From the sequence record NC_073316.1: a DNA stretch of 44,723 nucleotides; one strand, given 5' to 3'. Below, one piece after another: positions 1 to 44,723 of the stretch (within the stretch, counting starts at the first letter, position 1; each line of letters begins with the position of its first letter). A program made the translations under genes and the position numbers. The notes beneath the pieces are model-generated. The model had not been told where the DNA came from. It did not search any database and worked only from the letters and a program-made list of their open reading frames with translations. Origin of the DNA: Escherichia phage vB_EcoS_fFiEco02.

Positions 1-1251
1 ATGAGTATTCAGCTATCCGCTCCTCAGGCGCTGTTCCTGAACTGCGATAACAAATACAAGGCCTATGTCGGTGGCTTCGGTAGCGGTAAGACGTTTGTTG
101 GCTGTCTGGACCTGCTTACATTCATGCTTAAGCACCCCGGTACGCGCCTTGGTTACTTCGGCCCGACCTACCCGGCTATCCGCGACATCTTCTACCCGAC
201 ATTCGAGGAAGCTGCTAACCTCCTGGGCCTTGATGTGCTGGTTAAATCCGGCGACAAAGAGGTCGTCGTTACGAGAGGTAAGACAGTAATCGGTACAGTA
301 ATCTGCCGTTCGATGGATAACCCAGGCTCTATCGTCGGTTTCAAAATAGCCGCGGCGGTCGTTGATGAACTGGACGTTCTGAGCCGCGAGAAAGCGGAAC
401 TGGCGTGGAACAAAATCGTAGCCCGTATGCGTCTGGTTATCCCTGGAGTGGTAAACCACATCTCCGTTACCACGACACCGGAGGGATTCAAGTTCGTCTA
501 CGCCAAGTTCAAAGAGAACCCGACACCGAGTTACTCAATGGTGCAGGCTTCCACCCACGAGAACGCGCGATTCCTGCCGCCTGACTACATTAGCTCGCTG
601 ACCGAGACTTACCCAGCGCAACTGATTAACGCGTACCTGAATGGGGAGTTCGTTAACCTGACATCCGGCAGCGTCTACTACGCCTACGACCGACGTAAGC
701 ATCGCAGCAAAGAGACAATCCAACCGGGCGACACGCTGTACATCGGGCAGGACTTCAACGTTACGAAGAACGCCAGCGCCGTGTATGTGCAACGTAAAGA
801 CGGCTGGCACGCGGTAGCAGAACTGAAGGGCCTGTTCGATACGCCAGATACCGTGCGTGTGATTACCGAGAAGTGGGAGTCGCAAGGCCACCGCATCGTC
901 GTTTACCCGGACGCCAGCGGCAAGAACCGCAAAACCAACTCGGCGTCAATCTCCGATATCGCCTTACTACAGCAGGCCGGTTTTGATGTTCGCGCTAAAT
1001 CCGCCAACCCACCGGTTAAAGACCGTGTTTTAGCCGTGAATACCGCGCTGGAAAAAGGTAAGCTGTGGGTTAACGACCACTTATGCCCTGAGATAGCGAA
1101 GACGCTGGAGCAGCAGGCATATGACGATAACGGAGAGCCTACTAAAGACGGCGTCATTGACCATATGGCGGATGCTCTCGGCTATCCTGTAGTTTATGAG
1201 ATGCCGGTGGTTAAACCAGTAATCAACATCCCGGTGACTTTCGCACTTTAA
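1..1251 (+). CDS. terL: terminase large subunit
   Basis: 416 aa; Walker A GGFGSGKT near N-terminus, Walker B-like VVDELD, C-terminal nuclease-like motifs (IGQDFN, YPDASG, DHMADAL); followed by portal. Confidence 0.85.
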   Translation: MSIQLSAPQALFLNCDNKYKAYVGGFGSGKTFVGCLDLLTFMLKHPGTRLGYFGPTYPAIRDIFYPTFEEAANLLGLDVLVKSGDKEVVVTRGKTVIGTVICRSMDNPGSIVGFKIAAAVVDELDVLSREKAELAWNKIVARMRLVIPGVVNHISVTTTPEGFKFVYAKFKENPTPSYSMVQASTHENARFLPPDYISSLTETYPAQLINAYLNGEFVNLTSGSVYYAYDRRKHRSKETIQPGDTLYIGQDFNVTKNASAVYVQRKDGWHAVAELKGLFDTPDTVRVITEKWESQGHRIVVYPDASGKNRKTNSASISDIALLQQAGFDVRAKSANPPVKDRVLAVNTALEKGKLWVNDHLCPEIAKTLEQQAYDDNGEPTKDGVIDHMADALGYPVVYEMPVVKPVINIPVTFAL

Positions 1252-13825: not shown

Positions 13826-14015
13826 TGTTAACTCTCTTAAATCTGGCTATGCCTGACTCGTTAATGTTGCCTATTTCAAAGAAGCTGCGATATTTAGGCG
13901 AATACATTCTTACATCGCCATTCTCTAGGGTGGTCCCTTCATATACAGCACCTACTTCGAATCCATTTTTCTCCGCGTACGGACTAACATCGGTACATTC
14001 ATACATGTCTTTCAT
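13815..14015 (-). CDS. hypothetical small protein
   Basis: 66 aa, overlaps the neighbouring genes in the island operon. Confidence 0.4.
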   Translation of the reverse strand: MKDMYECTDVSPYAEKNGFEVGAVYEGTTLENGDVRMYSPKYRSFFEIGNINESGIARFKRVNSDK

Positions 14016-15142: not shown

Positions 15143-15206
15143 GCTTATTCCTCGTGCTTAGGATTTGTCCTATTTAACCACAGTGGATTCCTTTAAATAA
15201 AGGCGA

Positions 15207-15533: not shown

Positions 15534-15560
15534 AATTATTTCCTCAGTAAGTTACAGGTG

Positions 15561-15589
15561 AATAGTACCCTATTATATTGGGGTGTGCA
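15561..15589 (-). promoter_or_regulatory. sigma70-type promoter TTGCAC-N17-TACTAT with GAATAG-N4-CTATTC palindrome
   Basis: 26-bp identity with the promoter at 5592-5620; drives the - strand island. Confidence 0.6.
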
Positions 15590-15697
15590 AGTAGTGTGCT
15601 AGAATAAGTTTGCGCCTAGTGTCGCACACGAAAAGCGGGTGGTTCCCGTCTGGCGCGTCAACCTTAACCTGTAACCTCTTAACCAAAGGATTAAAGA

Positions 15698-16114
15698 ATG
15701 AAACTTTCTGATTTTTATTTTGCTGACCGCCATGCTGTAGGCACTAAAATGCCTATCCTTCTGCCGAGTGGTAAAGACTCCGGTGAATGGTTGCAGGTCA
15801 TTGGCCCAGATTGTGATGCTGGCGTTCGTGCGGGCCGTGCTTACACCACGGCAATTCGACGCCTTACGGAAGAACTTGCGCCGTTAGATAAAGAGTGCGA
15901 GGCGCTGAATAACTGGGCGCGCTATAACGATGAGAAGGGCTGGCGGGTGATGGACCTGAACAAGCAGCTTGCCGTGGAAATTGTCACCGGTTGGTCATTC
16001 GACGAACCGTTCAGCAAAGAGGCTCTGGCTAACCTGTTTGACCAGTACAGCGGACTGGCAGAAGCCGTAGTTAAGCACCACACCGATAGCCGCGAGAAAC
16101 TCTCGGAAAAGTAA
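15698..16114 (+). CDS. tail assembly chaperone (gpG-like)
   Basis: 138 aa ORF immediately upstream of tape measure; the -1 frame is open from its 3' end into 16204-16476. Confidence 0.55.
   Translation: MKLSDFYFADRHAVGTKMPILLPSGKDSGEWLQVIGPDCDAGVRAGRAYTTAIRRLTEELAPLDKECEALNNWARYNDEKGWRVMDLNKQLAVEIVTGWSFDEPFSKEALANLFDQYSGLAEAVVKHHTDSREKLSEK
16105..16114 (+). other. candidate -1 programmed ribosomal frameshift site (GGAAAAG + stop)
   Basis: Lys codon AAG before TAA can slip to AAA in the -1 frame, which stays open (…KVKALYEF…) into the downstream ORF. Confidence 0.35.
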
Positions 16115-16203
16115 AAGCGCTGTATGAATTTGCGCAATGGTGCTTTGTTGACCGTCACAAGCGTAAGCAATTCGACGACATCGCGGCGGGGCACCAGGCG
16201 GCT

Positions 16204-16476
16204 TTGATTGCAATGGGCGTGATTAAAGAACCGCAGATGAAAGAAACGACGGGGCCAGAATGCCCCGTTTCTCTTATCGACGTGTTCGAGAAATACCGTG
16301 CCATTAAATTCCTACAGCGCGAAACAGATGATACTATCGTTATAATCCCGCGCGATGCGCTCAAATGGCAAGATTTGGTAGCGTTTCGTGATGTCGCCGG
16401 TTACGGCATAAGTTTGTTCGAAGCCGAGGTTATCATGGGCTTAGACGGAATATTTGAGGGCAGAGAAGATGGCTGA
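16204..16476 (+). CDS. tail assembly chaperone frameshift extension (gpT-like)
   Basis: -1 frame relative to 15698-16114 and open from 16090; probably expressed as a G-T fusion rather than from its own start. Confidence 0.45.
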   Translation: MIAMGVIKEPQMKETTGPECPVSLIDVFEKYRAIKFLQRETDDTIVIIPRDALKWQDLVAFRDVAGYGISLFEAEVIMGLDGIFEGREDG

Positions 16477-18781
16477 TACGGCTTCCCTAATTACCAGAGT
16501 AAAAACAGAAGGCGCCGACGTAGCCGCCAAACAGCTTGACGCTATGGCGTCGTCCGCAGACCGTGCGGATACCGCAGTAAACAAGCTGACCCCGGATGTT
16601 AATAAAGTTAACACAGCCACCTCTAAAGCGGCCTCTGACGGTTTCGCTAAGTTCCGTAACGCCGCCGGGCAGGTTGGCTTCCAGGTGCAGGACATGGTCG
16701 TCCAGTTGCAGTCCGGAACGTCCGCATTCGTAGCGATAGGACAGCAAGGTTCGCAGCTTGCAGGTGCTTTCGGCCCTGGTGGTGCGGTGCTTGGGGCCGT
16801 AATTGCTCTTGCGTCAGCAATCGGCGGTGTCCTGTACAAATCACTAACCGAAGCAGAAGGCAGTTCAAAAGACCTGGAAGCCGCGCAGAAACAGTTAAAA
16901 GACACCTTCCAGCAAACAGCATCCGGCTCTCTCGAACTGACAGACGGCCTTATCCAGCTCACCCAAATCAGCCGAGAAGCGGCGGAGACTCAGCTTGCTC
17001 TGGCTAAGGCTAACGCGGACCTTATCGCACAGCAAACAGCTAAAGCTGTTCGTGAGGACGCGGAATCATGGGAAACATGGAAAGCCTCCACTGCATCAGC
17101 TATTAGCCAGTACGATGCATTGGTTTCTAAGGGTGCTGATGTAGGCGACACTTTAGAAAAACTAGGCGGAACCTACGAGGGTAACATCGTAGGCGTAAAC
17201 ATGCTGGCGCAGAATATCGCGGAGCTTAGCAGTAAGTTCGGGGTTAACCGCGACCGGGCGCTGGAGATGATAGCGGCGCAGAGCGCGTTCAACAAAGAGC
17301 CTATCGCCGAGAATGCCCGTCGCATCGCCGATGTGTTTACCGATTGGCTCGGTAATACAAAACAGTTGAACCCGGAACTTATCCGCCTGACCGACAATGC
17401 CAACAAGAACGCCACGGCACTGGAGAACGCTGAGAAGTCAGCAAACGCGGCCGCAGAGGCCCAAAAGAATCTTGGTCGTAACGTCAACTCAACCACGCAG
17501 AGGTTCCAGGAACAGAACGAAGCTATCGTCAAAAACCAGCAAATCGCCACCCTCGGCGACCGAGAGCGTATCCGAGCGCAAGCTGAACTTGATAAACAGG
17601 CGTTCGCTAAACGTGAAGCGGTCACCAAAGAACAGATAGCCGCATATAACGCGGCCCGGGATGCGGAAGCGCAGCAAGACATCGCTCGCATCGACGCGAC
17701 CGAAAAAGAGAAGGCAGACCGAGAGGCTAAATCAAACGAGAAACGTCTGGCGGCACAAGCCAAACGCGAAGAAGCTGCAGCCGCACGGCAGAAAAAAGCG
17801 GCGGAAGATTTCCTGGCTACTGTCGACCGCACTACTGGAGACGAAATTTCTCGTATCACGGCAGCAGAAGAGCAGAAACTGGCGAAACTTGAAGAGTTCA
17901 ACCGCGCCGGGACGATAAGCCAGCAGCAGTATGAAGATGCCAAAACTCAAATTATGCTCACAGCCGAGCAGGCCAGACAGGAAGAACTGGATAAGAAAAG
18001 AAAAGAGCAGCAGGAAAAGCAGCAGAAAGGCGATGACTTCATGGCCCAGATTATGGGGCAGAACGCCGCCGAGCTTGAGCTTCTCGACATCCAGGAACAG
18101 CAGAAACTGGCTGTCGCAGATAAGTACCGCGAACAGGGTCTGATTAGCGAGAAGCAGTACCAGGCCGCGCTTAACGCCATCAACGAGCAGTACGCCACGA
18201 AACGCGCCGACGCAACGGCAACTGCTTTCGGTAACATGGCTTCAAACATCGGTTCAGCGTTGGGTGAGGCTTCTGGCGCATATAAGGCATTCGCTATTGT
18301 ACAGGCCACTATCGCCACGTACACCGCGGCTATTGAGGCGTATAAGTCAACGGCTGCCATCCCTGTTGTCGGCCCATTCCTGGCCCCTGTAGCCGCTGCC
18401 GCTGCCGTTGGGGCGGGTATGGCGCAGATTTCCGCTATCAGGTCAGCACGTGAACAGGGCGGTCAGTTATCTGCGGGGCAGGCTTCTACTATCGCCGAAC
18501 GTGGTAAACCAGAAGTTATCATGCCCGCTGGTGCGTCACGTGTACGCACTGCGCAGCAGATGAAAGAAATTATGGGACAAAACGGGTCTTCTTCCGGCCC
18601 GTCTAATGTTACTATCGTAAACAACACGAGTTCTCAAATCGGCAACGTATCCACTGAGCAAGATGATGAAGGCCGTTTGCGTATCATCATCGAGGAGCAA
18701 GTAGCTGCGTCTTTGCAGAACAGCAACAGTAAGATTAGCAAGGCCCGCAAGGCCACAAGAAACGCGCCTGGTTTCAAGTAA
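16469..18781 (+). CDS. tail tape measure protein
   Basis: 770 aa, Ala/Gln/Glu-rich coiled-coil sequence, position after chaperones; ATG at 16469 with SD gagggcagagaag. Confidence 0.8.
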   Translation: MADTASLITRVKTEGADVAAKQLDAMASSADRADTAVNKLTPDVNKVNTATSKAASDGFAKFRNAAGQVGFQVQDMVVQLQSGTSAFVAIGQQGSQLAGAFGPGGAVLGAVIALASAIGGVLYKSLTEAEGSSKDLEAAQKQLKDTFQQTASGSLELTDGLIQLTQISREAAETQLALAKANADLIAQQTAKAVREDAESWETWKASTASAISQYDALVSKGADVGDTLEKLGGTYEGNIVGVNMLAQNIAELSSKFGVNRDRALEMIAAQSAFNKEPIAENARRIADVFTDWLGNTKQLNPELIRLTDNANKNATALENAEKSANAAAEAQKNLGRNVNSTTQRFQEQNEAIVKNQQIATLGDRERIRAQAELDKQAFAKREAVTKEQIAAYNAARDAEAQQDIARIDATEKEKADREAKSNEKRLAAQAKREEAAAARQKKAAEDFLATVDRTTGDEISRITAAEEQKLAKLEEFNRAGTISQQQYEDAKTQIMLTAEQARQEELDKKRKEQQEKQQKGDDFMAQIMGQNAAELELLDIQEQQKLAVADKYREQGLISEKQYQAALNAINEQYATKRADATATAFGNMASNIGSALGEASGAYKAFAIVQATIATYTAAIEAYKSTAAIPVVGPFLAPVAAAAAVGAGMAQISAIRSAREQGGQLSAGQASTIAERGKPEVIMPAGASRVRTAQQMKEIMGQNGSSSGPSNVTIVNNTSSQIGNVSTEQDDEGRLRIIIEEQVAASLQNSNSKISKARKATRNAPGFK

Positions 18782-18785
18782 TAAT

Positions 18786-18803
18786 ATGGCCCTTTCGGGC
18801 CAT
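18786..18803. terminator. hairpin between convergent genes (weak terminator)
   Basis: atggccc-tttc-gggccat; no strong U-tract. Confidence 0.35.
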
Positions 18804-18806
18804 AAC

Positions 18807-19553
18807 TTACTCGCTGCGTACTTTTCCGTTACATAGCTCCGTGAACTCAGCTATTATCTCGCTGTTGGCCACCATCCACTCACTGGCCCCATCAAAGTTG
18901 CTTAGCTCCGCCGATACGTGTGCGCGGTGAAAGTATCGCTCTAACATACGGCAACGAGCACCATTAGCGTCTTGGTATACACTAAGCACATGGAACTCAA
19001 ACGGAGTGGAGCGCTCCAGTTGAGCAAGTCGCTGTTTTAACTTGTTAGTAATACCTATTTTAAGGTATTTACCACATGCAGAAAGAAGTCCGTAAATGTA
19101 CCCTGGTTTGTTAGAGTCGTAGCCGTGTTTGGCGCACGACGGACAACCATGCCTGTGCACTAAAATATTATTAACCCCTGTAGCAAACACCCCGTGGTCA
19201 TTACATGCGCGTATCGCTTTGGAGTTTTTGTTTAGGTACGCGCCGCCTTCAAAACCCACGAACGTATATCGAACATCCGCGGATTTTATTTGCTCAATAA
19301 CGGCATCTGTATTCTTGCGGTAGGCAGCCGCCGCGGCTTCTCGACTGCATTTCATACACCCGTGTCCTCCAGAGATGCTACGGGCTATAGCTGAAAATTC
19401 ACCGTGGGACGGGCAAATAAGTCTAATCTTGCTAGTCGAGTCAATGTACTCACTACCATCATAACTTGCGGATATTGTGTACTTCCCGCCGTGTTTCTTT
19501 AAATCTAACTCGACCATTTTCTTCCGTTCTTCCCAACCAATTTTAACGCTCAT
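18807..19553 (-). CDS. GIY-YIG-type nuclease with N-terminal CxxHG…GCxxC zinc-finger repeats (putative homing endonuclease)
   Basis: motif GYIYGLLSACGKYLKIGITNKLKQR (GIY…YIG…R); two repeats CPSHGEF…GCMKC and CNDHGVF…GCPSC; SD aaggaggag; opposite strand inside the tail module. Confidence 0.6.
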   Translation of the reverse strand: MSVKIGWEERKKMVELDLKKHGGKYTISASYDGSEYIDSTSKIRLICPSHGEFSAIARSISGGHGCMKCSREAAAAAYRKNTDAVIEQIKSADVRYTFVGFEGGAYLNKNSKAIRACNDHGVFATGVNNILVHRHGCPSCAKHGYDSNKPGYIYGLLSACGKYLKIGITNKLKQRLAQLERSTPFEFHVLSVYQDANGARCRMLERYFHRAHVSAELSNFDGASEWMVANSEIIAEFTELCNGKVRSE

Positions 19554-19686
19554 ACCTACCTCGCTCCTCCTTGTTGTAGTAGCATGCTATTCGACGACGC
19601 CCTGTTTGGCAACTTAAACGCGGTGACGCTATGCTTCTCACCATGGTAACATTGACCTTAACATCCAATCTATCGAGGTTCTAATA

Positions 19687-20187
19687 ATGGGTGACTTATA
19701 CTTCCCACGTAGCCTTAAGCCAATTGTATCGAAAGGCTACTCGATGACCAGACGTAACAACGTCTGGAGCGTTGATTTAGCCGGTGGCGGGGTGCGCCAG
19801 GGCCGTGACACGTATTACGACGTGTTCCCGATAAGCGTAACCCTGATTACCTCAGCACTAGGGCGGCAGGCGTTTCTGTCGTTCCTTGAGAAAGTCGATG
19901 GTGGTGCTTCAAGTTTCTGGATGGCGCATGACTTCGGCATGGGTATCGAGGATTATCAGGTAACTATCACGTCAACCATCGCAGAGTCCACAGAAGATGG
20001 CATTAACTGGACGATTACTTTCACGGCAACCGTTGAGAAATCGCCGTTCCAGGATGAGGATAACCAGTGCCTTGTCAACAATCTGCCTGATTTGTATGGC
20101 TGCTATGGTGACAGGCTAGGATGTTTCCTTAAAGCCTACGGAACTGCACAATCAACGTTTCCACGAATTTGGGACCCGATGCAATGA
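19687..20187 (+). CDS. minor tail protein (distal tail, gpM-like position)
   Basis: 166 aa, first gene after tape measure. Confidence 0.45.
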   Translation: MGDLYFPRSLKPIVSKGYSMTRRNNVWSVDLAGGGVRQGRDTYYDVFPISVTLITSALGRQAFLSFLEKVDGGASSFWMAHDFGMGIEDYQVTITSTIAESTEDGINWTITFTATVEKSPFQDEDNQCLVNNLPDLYGCYGDRLGCFLKAYGTAQSTFPRIWDPMQ

Positions 20188-20699
20188 GCCAGGAATCAGT
20201 AGAAGCCGCCTATCGCCGTAAGCTGGCCTCAAATCCCGACGGCGAGATGGACTACATCACGTTGCAAATCAGCCACCCGTTGCTGTCGAAGACGTACTAT
20301 CTTGTTCGAGGGCTACAGGAACTTACGGCAACACTGGAGACAGGCGAAACAATCACGTTCGAGCCAACACCGATGGAAGCGTCGGGAGCCGCTAACAATA
20401 ACGACATGGACCAGACGACGACGTTTACACTTCCTGACGTCGGAAATTTACTGGACGATGAACTGGATAATATTCCGATGGATAGTACTGAGTTGCCGAA
20501 GTTCATATTTCGCCGTTATGTCAGCACCGACCTGTCTTACCCGGCAGACGGCCCTGTGGCATACGAGGCGCAGACCATAGCTCAGGACAAGGGGCGATTC
20601 TCCGCTAATTTAGGGACACCTATGCTTAACCAACGAAGCACTGGTATACTCATGACACCTAAAGAGATACCTTTATTACGCGGCCTGTTAATAACATGA
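20184..20699 (+). CDS. minor tail protein (gpL-like position)
   Basis: ATG at 20184 overlaps the upstream stop (ATGA). Confidence 0.45.
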   Translation: MSQESVEAAYRRKLASNPDGEMDYITLQISHPLLSKTYYLVRGLQELTATLETGETITFEPTPMEASGAANNNDMDQTTTFTLPDVGNLLDDELDNIPMDSTELPKFIFRRYVSTDLSYPADGPVAYEAQTIAQDKGRFSANLGTPMLNQRSTGILMTPKEIPLLRGLLIT

Positions 20700-21061
20700 A
20701 CATTAACGACTACACGGGAATACCTTACGACTTTCGCAAACGCAATTGCTGGCATCACGTGCGTATTGTCCGTGCGGATGCCGGGTTAGCCACACCGGCG
20801 TTCGACGCTACAAGCCCAACGGCAATTAACGACGCGTTTGACGAAGGGCATCGCAACACGAAGGGGCTTACGAAAATTGATAAGCCTGAGAACTTGTGCG
20901 CGGTTCTTATGGGTAGGCGCCGCGGCGGCAGAATCGTGTGGCACGCCGGGGTCTACTTTGACGGAATGGTGAGTCATTGCGAGATGGCCTCCCGTCAGGT
21001 ACGGCTAGACCGGCTTGTTGACCTGAGCGACCTGTACACGGAGATTGAATTTTGGCGATAA
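20696..21061 (+). CDS. tail assembly protein with NlpC/P60-like motif (gpK-like)
   Basis: 121 aa; Cys in NCWHH and His in WHAGVYF consistent with an NlpC/P60 Cys-His pair. Confidence 0.5.
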   Translation: MNINDYTGIPYDFRKRNCWHHVRIVRADAGLATPAFDATSPTAINDAFDEGHRNTKGLTKIDKPENLCAVLMGRRRGGRIVWHAGVYFDGMVSHCEMASRQVRLDRLVDLSDLYTEIEFWR

Positions 21062-23598
21062 TCCTGCACTACACGCGAAATGCTAACGGTGTTTTCGACC
21101 GCACAAAACACGTCGGGATGCCGATGGAGTTTGTCGTTAACCGTATTCCTGACGGCGTGCCTGTGCGCGTCTACCTCGGCGAAATTGGTGATGATACAGA
21201 CGTAACGGACGACTTCGAAGCGCTTAAAGACGAAGACGCGGTGTATCACATAGTAGAAGGAGCTGGTGGGGGTGCGCTTGTAGTAGGTGCGCTTGTTGCG
21301 TTGGTCGTCGTCGCGGCTACGGTTTTACTAACTAAGAAACCGAATCTGGCGGTAACAGCGACAAATAACCAAGCAAAATCCGCTAATAACAGCCTTACTG
21401 ACCGCTCCAACAAGCCGCGTCCTTACGAGCGCTCCTATGACATCTGCGGGACTGTGCAGACAATCCCTAATGACCTGATGCAGACGTATAAGGCGTTCGA
21501 CAATATCGGGAATTTACTAGAATACTCGTACTATGACGCCGGGCGGGGGCATCTACATATTGAGGCTGATGGGGTCACAGAGGGCGATACCCTGATAAGT
21601 GACATCACAGGCTCCTCTGTTGCCGTGTATGCGCCATATACCTCCCCGAACAACACCACATCTCCGCAGCTACAAATCGGGGACGTCATTGACCAGAAAC
21701 TCTATGTGACATACTCCAACGACGACGTCGACGGTATTGTACTGAAAGCGCCAAACGACATCGGGGCTAACCCAAGCGCCGATGGCACCGCGAAACGTAT
21801 TTCAAACACCGGCTACATCTATGACCCGTCGGGTGACTCCGCTTTTTCTGAGTTTCTTAGCGTCGGTGATGTCGCGGTGCTGAGCAACTTTGACGTTGCA
21901 GGCGTCACTAACCTTAACGGCTCGTTTGAGGTTTTATATGTCGATGACTTCGAAGTAAGACTGGCGGTGAATGGTGCTTCTAATTGGGACGCGTTAACCA
22001 GTGGGCAGACGTATACCTTAACAGAGCGTTCTGATACTTTCATTGGTCCGAGAGACACCTACGACGTATCCCTGACCGACTGGTATTACATGGTGCGCGG
22101 AGAAGTTGACCGGGTGCTTGCTAACGTTGCCGGGCAGAACGGCCTCTACAAATACGACGGTGGTTATAGCCGAGCCAATGTAACCGTAGAACTCCAGTAC
22201 CAGATGATCGATTCTCAGCGTAACCCGATTGGTGATATCTACACCGTACAAGGCACCGTTACCGGTAATAGCACGGATTACGTTGGCACGTCTATCTACG
22301 GGCAATTGCCTACTGCATCGCGTTTCCGCGCCCGTATGCGTCGTATAACGAATTTTGATAAGGACTACGACGGTACCGTAAGCGATGAGATAACATTCAT
22401 CAACCTGTACGGGCAGTCTCTGGACACAACCCCGCACTACGGCAACCGGACAACAGTACATTGCACCCGTAAACAGACACCGCGGGCCACTAGTATTGAC
22501 AACCCTGAACTGCGCATGATTGCGACTGAGATGTGTTACAAATACCTCGGAAATGGGGTATTCGATACTGTAATGACCCCGAACACGCAGGCGGTGCAAT
22601 CACTAATTCGACTGGCCCGCGACCCGGCGGTAGGTAACTTAGAACTGACAACCGCAAACATGGACAAGTTACTTGCCGTGCAGGAAGAGATTGAGTCCTA
22701 TTTTGGCAGCGAATTAGCGGGACAATTCTGCTACACGTTCGACGACTACGACACCACGATGCAGGACATCGTTCAGACTATAGCCGAAGCCGTGTTTTGT
22801 ACTGCGTACCGTAAAGGCGCAGACATTATGCTGCGTTTCGACCGTCCGGTTGCAGGGCCTGAAATGGTGTTCACCCACCGCAGTAAAACTACCGGTACAG
22901 AGAAATGGACGCGCACATTCAACGATTCTACTACCTACGATAGCCTGTCGTTCTCGTACATCGACCCGGATACAAACGTACAGGAAACTATTTATATCCC
23001 GGAAGAACTCGGTGCAAACACTGAGGAATACGAATCGAAAGGCGTGCGCAACTATCAGCAGGCGTACTGGCTGGCGTGGCGTCGCTATCAGCGCAATGCG
23101 TTAAGTAAAGTTGTCGTAGAGTTCGAAGCTACCGAAGAGGGGGCACTCGCTACACCGGGCGGCGTAATCAGTGTCGTTAAAGGCTCGCGTATCGCGCCGC
23201 AGGATGGCTATGTTGTTGCCGTTAATGGGCTTACGCTGACACTGTCACAGCCGGTTACGTTTACCCCCGGCGATGACCACTCCATCATCCTCAAGAAGCG
23301 CGATGGCTCCGTGCAGAGTATTTCTGTTATCAAAGGAAACCACGACCGCGAAGTGATTATGCTCTCCGCGCCGGAGGAAGCAATATACACGGGGAATAGC
23401 GCACTAAAAACTGAGTTTTCATTCGGCAACGAAGCAAGGCATAATGCACAGAAGATAGTTGTTTCTTCAATCGACCCGGGCGACGACCGCACGGTCAAGA
23501 TTACAGGCTACAACTATGACGACGGATTCTATAAATACGACGGCGTCGCTCCATACGGTAGCGGTTTCTCCGACGGATTCAGCAATGGTTTTAATTAA
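21052..23598 (+). CDS. tail tip / host-specificity protein (gpI/J-like)
   Basis: 848 aa; hydrophobic segment near N-terminus; position after the K-like gene; start uncertain (non-ATG at 21052 or ATG at 21121). Confidence 0.55.
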   Translation: MAIILHYTRNANGVFDRTKHVGMPMEFVVNRIPDGVPVRVYLGEIGDDTDVTDDFEALKDEDAVYHIVEGAGGGALVVGALVALVVVAATVLLTKKPNLAVTATNNQAKSANNSLTDRSNKPRPYERSYDICGTVQTIPNDLMQTYKAFDNIGNLLEYSYYDAGRGHLHIEADGVTEGDTLISDITGSSVAVYAPYTSPNNTTSPQLQIGDVIDQKLYVTYSNDDVDGIVLKAPNDIGANPSADGTAKRISNTGYIYDPSGDSAFSEFLSVGDVAVLSNFDVAGVTNLNGSFEVLYVDDFEVRLAVNGASNWDALTSGQTYTLTERSDTFIGPRDTYDVSLTDWYYMVRGEVDRVLANVAGQNGLYKYDGGYSRANVTVELQYQMIDSQRNPIGDIYTVQGTVTGNSTDYVGTSIYGQLPTASRFRARMRRITNFDKDYDGTVSDEITFINLYGQSLDTTPHYGNRTTVHCTRKQTPRATSIDNPELRMIATEMCYKYLGNGVFDTVMTPNTQAVQSLIRLARDPAVGNLELTTANMDKLLAVQEEIESYFGSELAGQFCYTFDDYDTTMQDIVQTIAEAVFCTAYRKGADIMLRFDRPVAGPEMVFTHRSKTTGTEKWTRTFNDSTTYDSLSFSYIDPDTNVQETIYIPEELGANTEEYESKGVRNYQQAYWLAWRRYQRNALSKVVVEFEATEEGALATPGGVISVVKGSRIAPQDGYVVAVNGLTLTLSQPVTFTPGDDHSIILKKRDGSVQSISVIKGNHDREVIMLSAPEEAIYTGNSALKTEFSFGNEARHNAQKIVVSSIDPGDDRTVKITGYNYDDGFYKYDGVAPYGSGFSDGFSNGFN

Positions 23599-23610
23599 AG
23601 AGGACTCTAT

Positions 23611-25947
23611 ATGTCAAGCGGATGCGGTGACGTTTTAAGCCTGGCGGATTTACAGACCGCCAAGAAACACCAGATTTTCGAAGCCGAGGTTATCACCGGC
23701 AAATCCGGCGGTGTTGCAGGTGGCGCCGATATTGATTACGCGACAAATGCCGTTACAGGGCAGACCCAAAAGACGTTACCAGCCGTGTTGCGTGACGCTG
23801 GTTTTTCTCCGGTGTCATGGGACTTTTCCACTGGTGGTACGTTAACCGCTAATGACCGCGACAAAGTGGTGTATGACCCTGTAAGCAAGACGTGGTACTC
23901 GTATACCGGGACTCTGCCGGTTGTTGTCCCCGCATCGTTTAACCCGGTTGGTAACGCTAACTGGAAGCCGCAGACTGACCCGGATTTGCGCAATGATTTA
24001 TCCAGCACAGACAATGCGACATTAGGTGATGCCATGGTCGGCGTCCGACAACCATTTACCGACGCTGTCGGCAGGACGCAACACGATAAAAATAGAGAAG
24101 TAGTTTCCGTTCTGGACTTCTATTTAGGTACTGACCCTGATTACACAAACGCCCTTAACCGAGCGCTTACAGCTAGTAACGGGGTGCTTGTACCGCAAGG
24201 GGAGTATAGTACGTCGCTACTCTCCCACCCGACATGCTCTCTATTCGGAACAGGGGGTGGGGTTTTAAAACAATCAAACGATTCTGGAAACCACTTAATC
24301 TTTGATAAACCTGCAGGAGGGCTACTTAGCACCCTGAGTATTGTAGGAAATAAGGCAACGGACTCCACACAGGGTCAGCAGGTTTCCTTCGCCGGTGGGC
24401 AGGACGTTACTATTAAAGGTATTGATTTTAAAAATGCAAAGGGAACTGGATTTAGTTTAATAGCATACCCTAGTGGTGGGGGTCCGTCTGGATACATTGT
24501 AAGCGGCATACGGGGCGACTACTCCGGGTATGCTACAAATAAAACAGCGGGGTGCGTGATGTTTGAGTCCGCAAGTAATACTATAATCAACGATGTTATC
24601 GCCCGAAACTACCCCCAATTCGGGGCGGTTGAGTTGAAAACAGATGCTAAATGTAATGTTGTTAGTGGCGTCATTGGGCAAAGCTGTCAGCACGTTGTTT
24701 ATAATGGCACCGAGACGACCAATGCCCCTAGCAGTAATATTATCAGTAATGTTGTTGCTAATAACGCTAAGTATGCCGCTGTGGTCGCCGGCAAGGGTTC
24801 AGGTAATCTGGTGACAAATGTCGTAGCTGATTACTCCTCCTCCGAGGCCACGCAGGCACACGGCGTTACAATACAAGGCGACTATAATGCCGCTGATAAT
24901 ATTCTAATGGTTGGGTGCAGCGGAACTAATAGTTTAGGGCAAACGCAAACCGCGACTTCTATTAGGTTTTCAGACGGAGCTAGTAATAACTACGCATCGG
25001 TTTTCCCTATGTATAGTGCTTCCGGGGTTGTTACACTAGCGACAGGGGCTACCCGTAACTTTGTGGAAGTAAAGCACCCTGGACCCAAGAACAGTCTTCT
25101 TAGTTCACTATCTACTATAACCGGGGTCTCTAGCATTGATGGTACTGCCACCAGTAACGTGGTACACGCCCCCGCTATAGGACAATACATAGGGTCCATG
25201 TCCGGTAGGTTTGAGTGGTTCACTAAGTATATAGATACTTCTGCATTGCCTTTTGTGACAGCTGATAAATTCAGACTAATTTCCGATGGGGCTACATCTT
25301 TGGCTATTGGGGGAGGTACGACCTCTCAGATAAGATTACTCACATCTGATGGTACTTTTCGAACTATTTCTCTGGTTAATGGTAATTTACGCTTAGCCTC
25401 TGACACATCGGCGTATATTCAAATAGCCCCGACGGGTATTACACCATCCAGCGCAAACACCGTCGCTATCGGGTCGGCAAGTCGCGCTTTGTCCGGCGGA
25501 TTCACTCAAACAGCGTTTACGGTTACGTCCGACGAGAGAGCCAAGACACTACCCCTGGAATTAACTGACGCTATGTTAGACGCTTGGGCTGAAGTTAATT
25601 TAGTTCAATATAAGTACCTGGATAGGGTTGCAGAGAAGGGGGAGGATGCAGCTAGGTGGCACTTTGGAGTAGTAGCCCAACGAGCAATTGAGGCGTTTAC
25701 CCGGCACGGGTTGGACGCGACTAAGTACGGTTTCCTGTGCTACGATAAGTGGGAAGCGTCTCCGGAAATTATTGATGAGGAATCTGGGGAAGTATTAACA
25801 AAAGCTACGGCGGCAGGGGAGCGGTATGGTATTCGTTATGATGAGGTATTGATATTAGAGGCTGCGTTACAGCGACGTAAAGCAGCTCAGTTAGAGAAAA
25901 GGATTATAGCGCTTGAGGCATTAGTGGCTACCCTGACAAACAGTTAA
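23611..25947 (+). CDS. tailspike / tail fiber with beta-helix and C-terminal S74-type intramolecular chaperone
   Basis: 778 aa; central region with repetitive beta-helix-like short strands; C-terminal TVTSDERAKTLPLELTDAMLDAWAEVNLVQYKY… resembles the auto-cleaving chaperone of endosialidases and T5 L-shaped fibers. Confidence 0.7.
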   Translation: MSSGCGDVLSLADLQTAKKHQIFEAEVITGKSGGVAGGADIDYATNAVTGQTQKTLPAVLRDAGFSPVSWDFSTGGTLTANDRDKVVYDPVSKTWYSYTGTLPVVVPASFNPVGNANWKPQTDPDLRNDLSSTDNATLGDAMVGVRQPFTDAVGRTQHDKNREVVSVLDFYLGTDPDYTNALNRALTASNGVLVPQGEYSTSLLSHPTCSLFGTGGGVLKQSNDSGNHLIFDKPAGGLLSTLSIVGNKATDSTQGQQVSFAGGQDVTIKGIDFKNAKGTGFSLIAYPSGGGPSGYIVSGIRGDYSGYATNKTAGCVMFESASNTIINDVIARNYPQFGAVELKTDAKCNVVSGVIGQSCQHVVYNGTETTNAPSSNIISNVVANNAKYAAVVAGKGSGNLVTNVVADYSSSEATQAHGVTIQGDYNAADNILMVGCSGTNSLGQTQTATSIRFSDGASNNYASVFPMYSASGVVTLATGATRNFVEVKHPGPKNSLLSSLSTITGVSSIDGTATSNVVHAPAIGQYIGSMSGRFEWFTKYIDTSALPFVTADKFRLISDGATSLAIGGGTTSQIRLLTSDGTFRTISLVNGNLRLASDTSAYIQIAPTGITPSSANTVAIGSASRALSGGFTQTAFTVTSDERAKTLPLELTDAMLDAWAEVNLVQYKYLDRVAEKGEDAARWHFGVVAQRAIEAFTRHGLDATKYGFLCYDKWEASPEIIDEESGEVLTKATAAGERYGIRYDEVLILEAALQRRKAAQLEKRIIALEALVATLTNS

Positions 25948-41838: not shown

Positions 41839-42304
41839 TGGATTGCATTTTACCGCTGCGTTCGAGGGGTTCCGTGGAACTGCATATCGTGCTACGCCGA
41901 ATGAGAAGTACCTGACTATTGGGTACGGTCACTATGGGCCGGACGTAACACCAGGTAAGACCATCACCCCTGGCCAAGGCCTCCTGTTACTGAATCGCGA
42001 TATGGCTAAGGCCGTAGCTGCGGTTGATGCAGCAGCACACCATTCGCTGACACAGGCGCAGTTCGACGCCGTGTGTGACCTGGTCTATAACGCCGGTGCA
42101 GGTGTGGTTGCAGCTACTACTGGCACGGGTAAGGCGCTGCGTTCCGGTGATGTCGCGACGCTACGGGCTAAACTGGCGCTGTTTATCAACCAGAACGGCA
42201 AACCGCTACTCGGCTTGCGTCGCCGTACTGCGGGCCGTCTGGCCCTGTTCGACGGCAAACCGTGGCAGGAGGCAGAGGCTATCGGGCGCGCGGTGAAAGG
42301 TTGA
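41816..42304 (+). CDS. endolysin, T4-lysozyme-like (GH24) muramidase
   Basis: motif EGFRGTAYRATPNEKYLTIGYGH matches the E-G-x-R…Y…T-I-G-x-G-H catalytic region; GTG start with SD ggagga overlapping the upstream gene. Confidence 0.8.
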   Translation: MSRNISDNGLHFTAAFEGFRGTAYRATPNEKYLTIGYGHYGPDVTPGKTITPGQGLLLLNRDMAKAVAAVDAAAHHSLTQAQFDAVCDLVYNAGAGVVAATTGTGKALRSGDVATLRAKLALFINQNGKPLLGLRRRTAGRLALFDGKPWQEAEAIGRAVKG

Positions 42305-42370
42305 CACCTGAGACTAATCCGACGATACTTAAATCACCTCCTGTTCCATCCCTCTGCTCTCCAGTTTTAT

Positions 42371-42423: not shown

Positions 42424-42452
42424 TTGACTATTAACATCGACCCTATTATATT
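42424..42452 (+). promoter_or_regulatory. promoter TTGACT-N17-TATATT with conserved early leader
   Basis: leader …ATCGACAACGAGAGGAGAG… as in the other early promoters. Confidence 0.5.
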
Positions 42453-42977: not shown

Positions 42978-43158
42978 CCGTGAATACGAGAAAGCGTGTG
43001 TAGAAGCGGCGCTCCGCCCCACCGACAACGGCGAATCGGAGATCGCTTGCCTGGACACTATGATTCAGTACTACGCAAATAAGGTTGACCGCCTGATGGA
43101 GCAACGCCGTGAACTGATTAACCGCTTCAACCTGAACAAAGGTGACACCAATGCCTAA
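42970..43158 (+). CDS. hypothetical small protein
   Basis: 62 aa. Confidence 0.4.
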   Translation: MTDREYEKACVEAALRPTDNGESEIACLDTMIQYYANKVDRLMEQRRELINRFNLNKGDTNA

Positions 43159-43390
43159 AATCACAATTGCATCGCTCGAGCGTCGTATCCTGGTGCTCGA
43201 GTCGGAGAAACAGACGTTAGGCGGGCAACTGTCTATCAATGGTGAGTTTCAACTGGAGGCGTTTAAGTTGCTTCTTGATAAGTTGAGGGCGGACGAAAAG
43301 CCTTGTGCGCATGACTACTACTTACATGTGGTTGGCGGGTTACATCGAGCCACGTGCATTAAATGTGGTGAAGCGTATGGAGTCGCCTAA
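43151..43390 (+). CDS. hypothetical protein with C-terminal CxxC/H cluster
   Basis: 79 aa; coiled-coil N-terminus, PCAHDYY…CIKCGEAYG. Confidence 0.4.
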   Translation: MPKITIASLERRILVLESEKQTLGGQLSINGEFQLEAFKLLLDKLRADEKPCAHDYYLHVVGGLHRATCIKCGEAYGVA

Positions 43391-43559
43391 GCCAGTAGTA
43401 ATTGATGGTGTCCTGTGGAAACCCTACTCGGTTGACCACATCGACGCCGACGGGAAGAAGTTTAGCTTCTACATTTTTGCAATTAGCCGTGAGCACGCCG
43501 CTTGTGTGGTCGATGATATACGAGAAACGGCGTGGCTTGGCGATGAGGTAGTGGGGTGA
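43377..43559 (+). CDS. hypothetical small protein
   Basis: 60 aa from the ATG at 43377. Confidence 0.35.
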   Translation: MESPKPVVIDGVLWKPYSVDHIDADGKKFSFYIFAISREHAACVVDDIRETAWLGDEVVG

Positions 43560-43561
43560 TT

Positions 43562-43732
43562 ATGTTCAGTGACATCGACGCAGCAATCGAAGAAGCAATA
43601 TGGCGGCGCTATAACGGCGAGCAACAGCGGCACTTTTGCCTCGTGCAACGCGGTAACATGATTGCCGTAGCGCAGGACCGGGATAACAAATATCCGAATG
43701 CGATGTGGTCAACGAGGAATTTCTTAGGATGA
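43562..43732 (+). CDS. hypothetical small protein (56 aa)
   Basis: below track cutoff; ATGA overlap with the next gene. Confidence 0.3.
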   Translation: MFSDIDAAIEEAIWRRYNGEQQRHFCLVQRGNMIAVAQDRDNKYPNAMWSTRNFLG

Positions 43733-43971
43733 TTACCAGCATTCCTAACCTGATTAAAGAATTCGGCACGATGGCGGAGACATGCCGACAAACTGGCCTC
43801 AACGAAATGACGATTGCTAAGTACAGCAAAGACGTGAAATGTGAGCGCCACGTAATCTATAACAACCGTCTAATGACGCACGTTAAGACAAGCCCGGTAT
43901 TATTCACGCGCCGCGGTATCACTAAAACCGAGCAACGTATTGCTAAAGAGGAGAACGAATGCGGCTACTAA
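43729..43971 (+). CDS. hypothetical protein (possible HTH)
   Basis: 80 aa; segment QTGLNEMTIAKYSKDV is HTH-like. Confidence 0.35.
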   Translation: MITSIPNLIKEFGTMAETCRQTGLNEMTIAKYSKDVKCERHVIYNNRLMTHVKTSPVLFTRRGITKTEQRIAKEENECGY

Positions 43972-44062
43972 TCATCACTAACGTCTGGGCTATCGCTGTA
44001 GCTAACAACCATTACGGCGGCGATGGTAAAAGAGCCCCACGACACGACCTGTATAACTGATA

Positions 44063-44086
44063 CAAGCCCTCTACGGAGGGCTTTTC
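44063..44086 (+). terminator. rho-independent terminator closing the early region
   Basis: hairpin agccctc-tacg-gagggct + tttt. Confidence 0.6.
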
Positions 44087-44101
44087 TGTACATCCCGCCC
44101 A

Positions 44102-44181
44102 ATCCCCTTATATAATCCCTTTAGACGCGTAGGGCGCGTCTGGTGCGCTCTGATGGTCAGACGCATATGCAAGGGGATTAT
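44102..44181 (+). promoter_or_regulatory. candidate late promoter and/or packaging-initiation region upstream of terS
   Basis: TTATATAAT -10-like box with no -35; inverted repeat atataatccc…gggattatat flanking GC-rich palindromes agacgcg-taggg-cgcgtct and gcgtctg…cagacgc. Confidence 0.4.
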
Positions 44182-44723
44182 ATGAAGCTGAAACTCAAGC
44201 AGCCATCGCCAGAGGTGGTGCAAGCTGCACATGAAGAAGCTGTTAGCGCAAACCGTCGCCGTAAACGACCGCGCGGTAAACAGAGCCTTTATCAATCGTC
44301 CCGTAATTCTGCGGCATTGTGGGACCCGGACTATTGCGACGAGTTAATCCGGTTCTTTGACCGCAACTCATGGGAACTCGTACCTACGTCCAAGGGTGAC
44401 GAACGCCCGCTGATTCAGGATAAACCCCCGTCACTGGCCCGCTTCGCCTTACACATCGGCGTAACTATCCCTATTATTAAGCTGTGGTTGCGTGAGATTC
44501 CGGCGTTTGCAGAAGCCTGTGAAACCGCTCAGGCGCTGGAAGAGGCGTATTTCACTGAGACAGGCGCTGCCGGTATCTCCGCTACGTTTGCTGCGGCTAA
44601 GCTGGGCTTAAGCAAAGAGAAACCTGTTGAATCCTCCGAAGAAACTGCGCCGACTGAGATTGTGTTCACCGTAGCGGAGCCGGTAGGTAAAATCGTTACC
44701 ACGAACATGGGTGAGGTAGGGGA
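44182..44723 (+). CDS. terminase small subunit (putative), 3'-partial in window
   Basis: ORF with SD aagggga runs off the window end; joining the ends gives …GEVGE + TGA at positions 2-4 overlapping terL ATG; directly upstream of terL. Confidence 0.5.
   Translation, partial: MKLKLKQPSPEVVQAAHEEAVSANRRRKRPRGKQSLYQSSRNSAALWDPDYCDELIRFFDRNSWELVPTSKGDERPLIQDKPPSLARFALHIGVTIPIIKLWLREIPAFAEACETAQALEEAYFTETGAAGISATFAAAKLGLSKEKPVESSEETAPTEIVFTVAEPVGKIVTTNMGEVG

Follow-up and report, generated by a model that had tools for sequence, protein, structure and literature searches.

The window, by which we mean the whole stretch of 44,723 nucleotides analysed, is a complete Kagunavirus genome, and fPoEco01, a 99.6%-identical phage, served as its annotated relative. 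Along the plus strand, a terminator-like hairpin (44064–44083) is followed by a sigma-70-like promoter and then by the leader of the small terminase gene terS (Table 1). The 33-aa ORF that ends the co-directional upstream operon is a hypothetical protein by the fPoEco01 annotation and is preceded by a NinH-like ORF (43705–43971), whose Pfam match to NinH is weak (E = 4.5e-4, under the family cut-off); this operon may be the source of read-through transcripts. The terS gene was identified by a match to phrog_3064 ‘terminase’ (E = 3e-72) and is also annotated as terS in fPoEco01. It crosses the window end, where ...GGGGA joins the window start ATGAGT, and its stop codon overlaps the start of terL (GAATGA), the first gene after terS in a plus-strand morphogenesis block of approximately 24 kb; translation of terL would probably be coupled to that of terS through the ATGA overlap. 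Terminator-like hairpins occur inside this block at 2756, 5018, 5896, 8287 and 13571.

Table 1 Features of the terS control region and neighbouring genes (window coordinates).
Feature	Position	Strand	Basis
terL, large terminase subunit	1..1251	+	PHROG matches, annotation of the relative
33-aa ORF, last small ORF of the co-directional upstream operon	43959..44060	+	ORF list
Intrinsic-terminator-like hairpin, AAGCCCTC-TACG-GAGGGCTT then TTTTCT	44064..44089	+	Inverted repeat, fold
−35-like hexamer TGTACA	44087..44092	+	4/6 matches, 18 nt upstream of −10
P1 5′ arm (anti-Shine–Dalgarno), overlapping −10 and discriminator	44108..44121	+	Minimum-free-energy fold
−10 hexamer TATAAT	44111..44116	+	6/6 matches
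Discriminator CCCTTT	44117..44122	+	Most variable stretch among Kagunaviruses
hp1, AGACGCGU-AGG-GCGCGUCU, 8–9 bp, near-invariant AGG loop	44123..44141	+	Fold, covariation
hp2, GUGCG-C-UCUGA-UGG-UCAGA-CGCAU	44143..44166	+	Fold, covariation
terS translation initiation region (P1 3′ arm)	44171..44185	+	Sequence, fold
terS, small terminase subunit	44182..44723, ending at window positions 1–4	+	phrog_3064, fPoEco01 annotation

The stem arms of the terminator-like hairpin (AAGCCCTC/GAGGGCTT, 44064–71/44076–83, then TTTTCTGT) fold at −15.4 kcal/mol (z = −4.2) and covary among relatives (GCCCTC/GAGGGC, GCCCGC/GCGGGC and GCACTC/GAGTGC). A simple consensus terminator scan made no call at 44064–44089 because only four consecutive T residues follow the stem (tail, UUUUCUGU only). 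An earlier note on this DNA had placed a terminator at 44063–44086, where the stem is indeed present; all of the motifs listed in that note exist in the sequence, each approximately 2 nt to the right of where it had put them. The hairpin most likely closes the upstream operon and marks a mosaic boundary.

Directly downstream, TTATATAAT occupies 44108–44116, and the pair TGTACA and TATAAT matches the consensus at 10 of 12 positions overall in a promoter scan, so that the −35 is recognizable after all, contrary to what had been noted previously. Of the lineages examined, only Jerseyvirus departs from TATAAT at the −10 (TACAAT), and the hexamer is kept even where it is unpaired (SE1-like lineages, L198, L267 and Smarc3). 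TGTACA is conserved in Kagunavirus and Jerseyvirus with a diverged spacer sequence; elsewhere, the −10 is either preceded by TTGCCT, TTGCCA or TTGCTA with a 17-nt spacer or extended (TGnTATAAT), and Dhillonvirus carries TGTTATAAT. At least eight lineages have a −35-like hexamer or TGn at 17–18 nt, the length of the spacer being kept and its sequence diverged, which supports the promoter proposed in the earlier note. The discriminator takes the forms CCC, CCA, CTA, CCT and CAC among otherwise near-identical Kagunavirus leaders. All lineages have an A residue 7–8 nt after the −10, with hp1 beginning 0–2 nt later, and we infer that the most likely transcription start is A44123, 7 nt past the −10.

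The plus-strand promoter scan of the late block, which covered 1–20000, returned no other site with at least 10 of 12 matches; strong promoter-like sites lie upstream of the region, at 42301–42329 and 42424–42452. No phage sigma factor is listed in the fPoEco01 annotation, and a literature search returned no transcriptome or start-site map for Guernseyvirinae or Dhillonvirus phages. On the basis of its sequence signature and the comparison among lineages, the terS promoter is most likely of the host sigma-70 type. Given that the −35 in the window is poor (4/6, with an 18-nt spacer), it may still depend on an activator, as the earlier note had suggested for a promoter with no −35.

Two adjacent, non-exclusive hairpins follow. 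The first, hp1, contains the AGACGCG/CGCGTCT inverted repeat (44123–29/44135–41) and is predicted to lie at the very 5′ end of promoter-initiated mRNA. Of its cells, 98.8–99.3% are paired, and five of its eight pairs change on both sides in the wide alignment, many of the changes being G-U wobbles. In hp2, pairing is complete in the upper stem (100%) and reaches 95% in the lower stem, six of ten pairs change on both sides (compensated variants include UCUGA/UCAGA, UAUGA/UCAUA and GCCGA/UCGGC) and the apical GAUGGUC is invariant. The distance between the AGG of hp1 and GATGGTC is exactly 18 nt in every lineage. This second hairpin, the one that is really conserved, was absent from the earlier note.

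Taken together, hp1 and hp2 reach 99.5% pairing over 36 distinct leaders. A wider alignment of 42 rows, Dhillonvirus and Serratia phages among them, gives 98.1%; it was built to fit the model structure and is therefore biased towards pairing. In the same 42 rows, 11 of the 18 pairs change on both sides, a value matched by none of 500 shuffles, and at most 52% of cells are paired when the partners are slid. A MAFFT alignment of the hairpin core misplaced the 3′ arm of hp2 and was left out. Paired columns hold 61 G-U cells versus 6 A-C cells. In each of the eight lineages tested, the more stable fold is that of the plus strand rather than the minus strand. The hp1 and hp2 fold (−22.4 kcal/mol) dominates the ensemble; RNA from 44108–44187 folds into a three-way junction of hp1, hp2 and an outer helix, P1 (−39.1 kcal/mol, z = −7.1), and the fold of 44095–44200 has z = −3.85. 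Sequence and comparison support base pairing of hp1 and hp2 as sense-strand RNA, and the two are most likely adjacent, deeply conserved hairpins of the terS leader.

The earlier note had instead described mutually exclusive hairpins, which would make the leader a transcription attenuator in which hp1 competes with a GCGTCTG...CAGACGC pairing. The latter inverted repeat exists (44136–42/44158–64), and in the window both pairings are perfect 7-bp inverted repeats that share 44136–44141. However, the central pair of the alternative is lost in 18 of the 36 distinct relatives with neither covariation nor compensatory change, the substitution responsible is itself compensated within hp2, and the ensemble is dominated by hp1 and hp2 rather than by the alternative pairing. 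No U-tract follows either hairpin (hp1 is followed by GGUGCG and hp2 by AUAUGCAAGG), and a conserved leader peptide is absent, as the in-frame upstream GTG/ATG changes non-synonymously. An attenuator at this position is therefore scarcely credible, and we retain the reading of hp1 and hp2 as coexisting hairpins.

Two further candidates were rejected. An N-terminal extension of TerS, or a leader peptide, starting from the in-frame GTG/ATG 39 nt upstream of terS was set aside because the upstream codons change non-synonymously and the terS codons synonymously, and because in the SE1-B and TS33 lineages this start codon does not share the terS frame; this GTG/ATG is also the position at which many Jerseyvirus records start. 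A nut site was considered on account of the boxA-like CGCUCUGA inside hp2, which matches the lambda boxA (CGCUCUUA) at 7/8. It was dismissed because CGCUCUGA is base-paired and changes within a compensated pair, and because Jerseyvirus has CGCUAUGA or CGUUAUGA in its place.

The same module precedes terS in approximately 590 phage records from Guernseyvirinae, Dhillonvirus and Serratia phages (leader matches in 431, 154 and 5 phage records); these are BLAST match counts, and representatives alone were inspected. Where BLAST aligned the leader with that of phage SE1 (54% of the query), identity is approximately 76%, and hp2 and the 3′ arm of hp1 are almost identical in Jerseyvirus and SE1-like phages. 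TerS and TerL are 29% and 45% identical to their SE1-like counterparts, respectively, and the N-terminal ~48 residues of TerS are unalignable. Searching the genome with a covariance model with filters off revealed no second copy of the element (101 bits; the next match has 11.8 bits, apart from a 15.8-bit antisense match at the same locus). An Rfam scan of 43000–44723 with E up to 10 gave no match overlapping 44060–44200, and a scan of genome contigs gave no bacterial or prophage copy of the element. Protein-pattern searches of IMG/VR for more distant terS loci returned only the same ~50 contigs, and DNA patterns anchored on the hairpin loops worked better.

Strong conservation of primary sequence immediately upstream of terS might also reflect a DNA-level terminase recognition site (pac/cos-like, on the model of SPP1 pac), as the earlier note had suggested for the palindromes; packaging sites are commonly located just upstream of terS, as in SPP1 and the cos phages. 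In addition, many GenBank records of relatives begin inside the element, at TATAAT in some cases and with the initial base of hp2 in others. These record starts, however, follow a convention of linearization and for this reason were rejected as physical ends: the BASEL collection linearizes genomes at the terminase gene or operon (PMC11990801), and the common start at −39 coincides with the in-frame ATG, the Jersey record annotating terS from position 40. Read-start or restriction analyses published for three relatives likewise give no fixed end at a defined position. Randomly sheared DNA of the Jerseyvirus Se_F1, sequenced at 796x, had random, permuted ends (PMC9409062), the Kagunavirus fBC-Eco01 had no obvious termini (PMC9825357), and the Jerseyvirus K47 was called P1-like headful by PhageTerm, but its EcoRV digest agreed with the circular map and lacked a pac fragment (PMC10783031).

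Nor does the element track TerS, as it changes little in phages whose TerS has 29% identity and an unalignable N terminus; its substitutions follow sense-strand RNA pairing, with the excess of G-U over A-C cells (61 versus 6) indicating that pairing is preserved on one strand only. Hairpins with covarying stems are unusual among known pac sites. The SPP1 pac region overlaps promoters of the small-terminase gene and is bound as DNA by its TerS. The present region is similar in being conserved non-coding DNA just upstream of terS that coincides with the operon promoter, but differs in that its constraints are those of RNA pairing and are independent of TerS divergence. On these grounds, the palindromes are not supported as a packaging site, which we consider very unlikely. 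Of the interpretation in the earlier note, the promoter is thus supported, and the mutually exclusive attenuator hairpins and the cos/pac-like site are not.

The flanking inverted repeat in that note was recovered at 44110–44122 versus 44171–44183 (13 nt, one mismatch), with a second register at 44101–14 versus 44166–79. Dinucleotide shuffles of 44086–44200 yield a repeat this good (13 nt or longer, no more than one mismatch) in 0.3% of cases, and this and the fold energies place the features beyond chance. Its right arm consists of the Shine–Dalgarno sequence (AAGGGGA, 44171–77) and the terS start codon (AUG, 44182–84). The minimum-free-energy fold pairs 44108–44121 with 44172–44185 to form P1, with a duplex energy of −16.9 kcal/mol (z = −5.9) in the window and z ≤ −2.7 in 9 of 13 representatives. 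Cognate arms pair better than non-cognate arms (permutation test, p = 0.005), and 81–83% of cells are paired versus 36–51% when slid. Covariation in P1 is modest (81% paired versus 78.6% in column shuffles), and many Kagunaviruses have mismatches (discriminator CCC to CCA; A to C in the spacer between Shine–Dalgarno and AUG).

The 5′ arm of P1 shares sequence with the −10 and discriminator, so that only RNA started upstream contains it. The predicted unpaired probability of the AUG is 0.01 in read-through RNA and 0.4–0.7 in RNA from 44122–44123, and that of the Shine–Dalgarno sequence rises from 0.32 to 0.6–0.85. Sequence and comparison therefore predict an occluded ribosome-binding site (RBS) in the long RNA and an exposed one in the short RNA. 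P1 is weakest in L198 and L267, both of which have no terminator and have divergent upstream genes; these lineages keep TATAAT and the hairpins and lose P1. It is also weak in the SE1-A and Serratia lineages despite co-directional upstream genes, and the link between P1 strength and upstream gene orientation comes from only two lineages. We infer that read-through into terS occurs and that P1 is functional.

The junction could be read differently, with TATAAT inactive, terS expressed from upstream promoters through a leaky terminator and the P1–hp1–hp2 junction, formed in every transcript, acting as a translational brake. Such a brake could be constitutive or regulated, with a factor, temperature or processing (for example by RNase III in stacked P1/hp1) as possible means of opening it. 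The great stability of the three-way junction, the strong promoter-like sites upstream and the terminator, whose T-tract is short and which the scan passed over, are consistent with this explanation. Against it, TATAAT is invariant in the lineages where it is unpaired, the −35-like element or TGn keeps its proper distance, the discriminator (P1 sequence under a brake) varies more than any other stretch, and the lineages with divergent upstream genes retain TATAAT and the hairpins without P1. An inactive TATAAT is thus improbable, and the promoter remains our preferred source of terS mRNA.

The hairpins themselves may have more than one role. The 5′ UTR of Escherichia coli ompA reportedly carries a 5′-terminal stem-loop that stabilizes the mRNA, in work by Emory, Bouvet and Belasco from 1992, and a stem near the 5′ end has the geometry that protects mRNA from 5′-end-dependent attack by RNase E. 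As hp1 would in all lineages begin within 0–2 nt of the mRNA 5′ end, it may act as a 5′-terminal mRNA stabilizer of this kind. For an ompA-type stabilizer, however, a stem suffices, leaving the invariant AGG and UGG loops and the conserved second hairpin unaccounted for. Neither pairing alone nor a 5′-stabilizer role explains the invariance of the loops, which suggests a conserved binding partner.

It is accordingly possible, although unlikely, that hp1 and hp2 together bind a factor or modify RNA polymerase, as either a put-like antiterminator or an operator for a translational repressor or other conserved RNA-binding protein; this alternative concerns the role of the hairpins, and the promoter reading stands alongside it. 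The near-invariant AGG loop (in a (C/U)AGGG context), GAUGGUC and the fixed 18-nt spacing, around which the stems covary freely, would fit such a role, as would the invariance of the loops across phages with terminase proteins that are 29–45% identical. The element is also promoter-proximal, consists of two stem-loops and heads a ~24-kb block with several terminator-like hairpins, and the putL RNA of HK022, too, has two stems and follows closely on its promoter (PMC9378689). A put-like role would entail suppression of downstream terminators through the zinc-binding domain of RNA polymerase beta′. Both putL and putR are cis-acting, promoter-proximal pairs of adjacent stem-loops that head a long terminator-containing operon, but they measure ~70 nt and occur twice per genome (PMC9378689), whereas the present element is ~45 nt long and single-copy, with no sequence similarity to put established. 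Further points against this role are that hp1 and hp2 match no Rfam family, that the terminator-like hairpins inside the block, with their weak T-tracts, may be designed for partial termination, and that no candidate binding protein emerged.

In a broader and equally tentative form, to which we give only a minor share of our confidence, hp1 and hp2 would be a previously undescribed family of promoter-proximal, cis-acting RNAs that bind a conserved factor and control late genes, and so would be more than a passive leader. The factor could be of host or phage origin, and could be RNA polymerase (put-like antitermination) or a translational regulator. The candidate family is defined by AGG (context CAGGG) and GAUGGUC exactly 18 nt apart, and heads the terminase/late operon in several genera of enterobacterial siphoviruses (Kagunavirus, Jerseyvirus, other Guernseyvirinae, Dhillonvirus and Serratia phages).

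Considering these data, our favoured interpretation, which we regard as reasonably probable, is that the region controls the Kagunavirus packaging/morphogenesis operon through a terminator, a promoter and a two-hairpin leader, with promoter-started transcripts alone exposing the RBS. The intrinsic terminator would end the upstream small-gene operon, and the host sigma-70-type promoter directly after it would start transcription at approximately 44123, yielding an mRNA that opens with hp1 and hp2, followed by an accessible terS Shine–Dalgarno sequence and AUG. In read-through RNA, the 5′ arm of P1 would close the three-way junction and bury both the Shine–Dalgarno sequence and the AUG, so that the terminase would go untranslated from early or read-through RNA.

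This arrangement has a parallel in T4, in which genes e (lysozyme), soc, 49 and I-TevI have an RBS-sequestering hairpin with a late promoter in its 5′ arm (PMC3014915). As in T4, the predicted pairing partner of the Shine–Dalgarno sequence and AUG overlaps the promoter −10, and transcripts from upstream hold both arms and are predicted to be untranslatable, whereas those from the embedded promoter have no 5′ arm; the predicted start at 44123 lies 1 nt past the P1 5′ arm. The systems differ in three respects. First, the promoter here is sigma-70-like (TATAAT with a weak −35), whereas that of T4 is gp55-dependent (TATAAATA), and we found no T4-type late promoter (TATAAATA, gp55/gp33) in the region, only TATAAT with a −35-like element. 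Second, the arms are ~50 nt apart with two conserved hairpins between them, so that a three-way junction takes the place of a simple stem-loop. Third, the gene that would be regulated is the terminase. By analogy, the region resembles the T4 cases in logic and is no member of the T4 set.

If this interpretation is correct, the main promoter of the structural-gene block would be identified in a large group of coliphages and salmonellaphages that are therapeutic candidates. A tempting misreading is also corrected—the palindromes are no evidence of a packaging site, and GenBank starts inside the element are a matter of convention. The T4 trick of placing a promoter in an RBS hairpin would have been reinvented with a host-type promoter, keeping the terminase from being synthesized early. 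The leader would represent a compact RNA motif of ~45 nt that is more deeply conserved than the adjacent proteins, making it a candidate new entry for RNA family databases and a handle for engineering late-gene expression in small, synthetic-biology-friendly genomes.

The window is a complete Kagunavirus (Guernseyvirinae) genome linearised at the terL start, and a nucleotide search with 43700-44723 found Escherichia phage vB_EcoS_fPoEco01 to be 99.6% identical across the queried 1,024 bases. The ORF that follows the palindromes encodes the small terminase subunit (TerS; phrog_3064, E = 3e-72), and its stop codon overlaps the start of the large-subunit gene terL (GGGGAATGAGT; 44720-44723 joined to 1-4). 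The two genes are probably translationally coupled; the record is cut inside their overlap and the genome is circular or permuted. terS is the first gene of a plus-strand morphogenesis block of ~24 kb, for which a scan of 1-20000 (20001-24723 lying outside it) detected no other promoter-like site of ≥10/12 matches and several terminator-like hairpins. These hairpins occupy intergenic gaps that follow the portal, decoration and major capsid genes, and those at 5018 and 13571 appear bidirectional; they may serve to balance transcript amounts or may create a need for antitermination. The small ORFs upstream of terS form an operon in the same orientation, and its last genes include a NinH-like gene. 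A pair of strong plus-strand promoter-like sites just past the endolysin gene precedes this operon and would drive it as far as the putative terminator at 44064.

Coordinates of features in and around the terS leader and elsewhere in the genome
Feature	Position	Strand	Remarks
Terminator-like stem	44064-71/44076-83		followed by TTTTCTGT
TTATATAAT	44108-16		carries the -10
Outer inverted repeat	44110-22 versus 44171-83		13 nt, 1 mismatch
P1 helix (predicted)	44108-21 with 44172-85		-10/discriminator with Shine-Dalgarno and AUG
AGACGCG/CGCGTCT	44123-29/44135-41		
GCGTCTG/CAGACGC	44136-42/44158-64		
Hairpin hp2	44143-66		
terS start codon	44182		ATG
Hydrophobic ORF, 33 aa (MRLLIITNVWAIAVANNHYGG...)	43959-44060		overlaps end of NinH-like gene; stop 3 nt before putative terminator; hypothetical in fPoEco01 annotation
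Best sigma-70-like matches in genome (10-11/12)	42301-42329, 42424-42452	+	
Best sigma-70-like matches in genome (10-11/12)	34324-34295, 31705-31677	-	
Terminator-like G+C-rich hairpins, late block	2756-2771, 5018-5038, 5896-5915, 8287-8308, 13571-13590	+	

Every motif listed in the earlier note was recovered by reading 43500-44723 and with a repeat finder, about 2 nt further to the right. Among dinucleotide shuffles of 44086-44200, 0.3% contain an inverted repeat as long as the outer one, whose right arm comprises the Shine-Dalgarno sequence and ATG of terS; the segment 44108-44187 has a folding energy of -39.1 kcal/mol (z = -7.1). Because a second hairpin (hp2), absent from that note, adjoins the first (hp1), the minimum-free-energy structure is a three-way junction rather than a choice between exclusive hairpins. 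The suggestion of mutually exclusive, attenuator-like hairpins was not supported: the alternative GCGUCUG/CAGACGC pairing is perfect in Kagunaviruses, but 18 of 36 relatives carry a substitution that disrupts its central pair and is compensated within hp2, no covariation in this pairing was detected among the 36, and neither hp1 nor hp2 is followed by a U-tract.

The promoter part of the earlier interpretation was supported, and a -35-like element, thought unrecognisable, was found as TGTACA 18 nt upstream of TATAAT (10/12 matches overall), although it is weak in the window and may leave the promoter dependent on an activator. The -10 is TATAAT in every lineage except Jerseyvirus (TACAAT) and is kept even where unpaired. 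Depending on lineage, TGTACA, TTGCCT, TTGCCA or TTGCTA lies 17-18 nt upstream, and in Dhillonvirus an extended -10 (TGTTATAAT) replaces the -35; the sequence between the -35-like element and the -10 has diverged across lineages. The six discriminator bases are the most variable positions among near-identical Kagunavirus leaders, and all lineages have an A 7-8 nt past the -10, with hp1 beginning 0-2 nt further on. Such a comparative pattern is the classical mark of a promoter, with a predicted transcript start at ~44123. In Dhillonvirus (as in 'rolling', L256, ~440-535) the T-tract of the terminator abuts the promoter. The terminator-promoter arrangement as such is ordinary.

The same module precedes terS in 431 Guernseyvirinae phage records, 154 Dhillonvirus records (including Sodalis phage SO-1), 5 Serratia phage records and many IMG/VR and metagenome contigs; these totals count BLAST matches, partial ones included, and representative leaders only were read and aligned. 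A search of one bacterial genome per species gave no convincing copy. At least eight lineages were told apart (Kagunavirus, Jerseyvirus, SE1, SE1-A, SE1-B, TS33/L218, L198, L267, Dhillonvirus and Serratia Smarc3). BLAST matched 54% of the query leader to that of phage SE1 at ~76% identity; for the proteins of SE1, identity is 29% in TerS (over residues 49-173 only) and 45% in TerL. TerL of Jerseyvirus and Dhillonvirus share 41% identity (PMC10783031). Judged from these comparisons, conservation of the leader is far deeper than that of the flanking genes. Sequences 5' of the terminator are unrelated even among Kagunaviruses, and the module is thus the left edge of a conserved packaging block. 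Of the 154 matching Dhillonvirus records, 140 have leaders at 95-99% identity, an unusual uniformity for phage non-coding DNA.

Across 36 distinct leaders (alignment A2), 99.3% of hp1 and 99.7% of hp2 cells are paired, compared with 95.6% in column shuffles and ≤60% when partners are slid. A model-based alignment of 42 distinct rows (A4), which adds Dhillonvirus, Serratia and L267 and, being fitted to the structure, favours pairing, has 98.1% of cells paired (shuffles, 89.5%; slid partners, ≤52%) and two-sided changes in 11 of 18 pairs, a number reached in 0/500 shuffles. The hp1 stem occurs as GACGCG/CGCGUC, GAUGGC/GCCGUC and AGGCCC/GGGCUU, and the upper hp2 stem as UCUGA/UCAGA, UAUGA/UCAUA and GCCGA/UCGGC. 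Paired columns hold 61 G-U cells versus 6 A-C cells and the plus-strand fold is stabler than the minus-strand fold in 8/8 lineages tested, indicating that the constraint acts on sense RNA rather than duplex DNA. Both loops are near-invariant (hp1, [C/U]AGGG; hp2 apex, GAUGGUC), with exactly 18 nt from AGG to GATGGTC; invariant loops and fixed spacing go beyond what a passive leader, or a hairpin that stabilises the 5' end, would account for. A covariance-model search picked out a single copy per genome (101 bits; next match elsewhere in the genome, 11.8 bits), and an Rfam scan of 43000-44723 (E up to 10) gave no match to the leader. Binding of the hairpins by a conserved partner, perhaps RNA polymerase or a translational regulator, is a real, though rather unlikely, possibility. 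In the 5' arm of hp2, CGCUCUGA (44146-44153) agrees at 7/8 positions with the lambda boxA sequence, CGCUCUUA; it is base-paired and not conserved in Jerseyvirus, and the match is probably coincidental. Like the present leader, the put RNA of HK022, whose partner is RNA polymerase, has two stems just downstream of its promoter (PMC9378689).

The earlier note had also proposed a terminase packaging site. For Jerseyvirus K47 the PhageTerm call is P1-like headful; its EcoRV profile lacks a pac fragment, although the authors of that study still prefer pac initiation (PMC10783031). In Jerseyvirus Se_F1, sequencing of randomly sheared DNA to 796x indicated random, permuted ends (PMC9409062), and Kagunavirus fBC-Eco01 showed no obvious termini (PMC9825357). 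The element, moreover, does not diverge in step with TerS, and base changes in it follow RNA rather than DNA rules. A packaging site is therefore not supported, although TerS may bind the element DNA. Many Jerseyvirus and some Kagunavirus records (for example, L027, L037, L044, L047, L048 and L052) begin at base 1 of hp2 (ATGCG/GTGCG), an in-frame ATG/GTG that precedes the true terS start by 39 nt; these starts are convention, not physical ends. Within 44143-44184, the stretch ahead of the terS start was rejected as coding sequence, since its substitution pattern is non-coding and two lineages have it out of frame. Several Dhillonvirus records that start precisely at the T of TATAAT (EP23, EK99P-1, JLBYU60 and Sodalis phage SO-1; labels include L269, L284 and L289) probably copy the first deposited genome.

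The outer repeat is predicted to form a helix, P1, of -16.9 kcal/mol in the window, with the -10/discriminator as one strand and the Shine-Dalgarno sequence plus AUG as the other. In 9 of the 13 representatives this duplex is significantly better than those formed by shuffled partners, and cognate arms pair better than non-cognate ones (permutation p = 0.005). By column counts 81-83% is paired, well above slid arms (36-51%) and barely above column shuffles (79-81%), and many Kagunaviruses carry a mismatch, so that selection on P1 is plausible, not proven. In folding calculations, the unpaired probability rises from 0.01 in read-through RNA to 0.4-0.7 in RNA from 44122-44123 for the AUG, and from 0.32 to 0.6-0.85 for the Shine-Dalgarno sequence, a shift that has the same direction in most lineages. 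In transcripts leaking through the putative terminator, P1 would silence terS and, via coupling, terL, whereas promoter-initiated mRNA would lack the 5' arm. Consistent with such a design, P1 is essentially absent from L198 (-1.3 kcal/mol) and L267 (-2.2 kcal/mol), which are also the two lineages without an upstream terminator and with opposite-strand upstream genes; that the two divergent lineages should be the two weakest of ten has a chance of 1 in 45. The T4 genes e, soc, 49 and I-TevI follow the same logic (PMC3014915). Two features merit the notice of specialists: a deeply conserved, covarying two-hairpin leader that is not in Rfam, and a promoter embedded, in T4-like fashion, in the arm predicted to hide the ribosome-binding site of a terminase gene.
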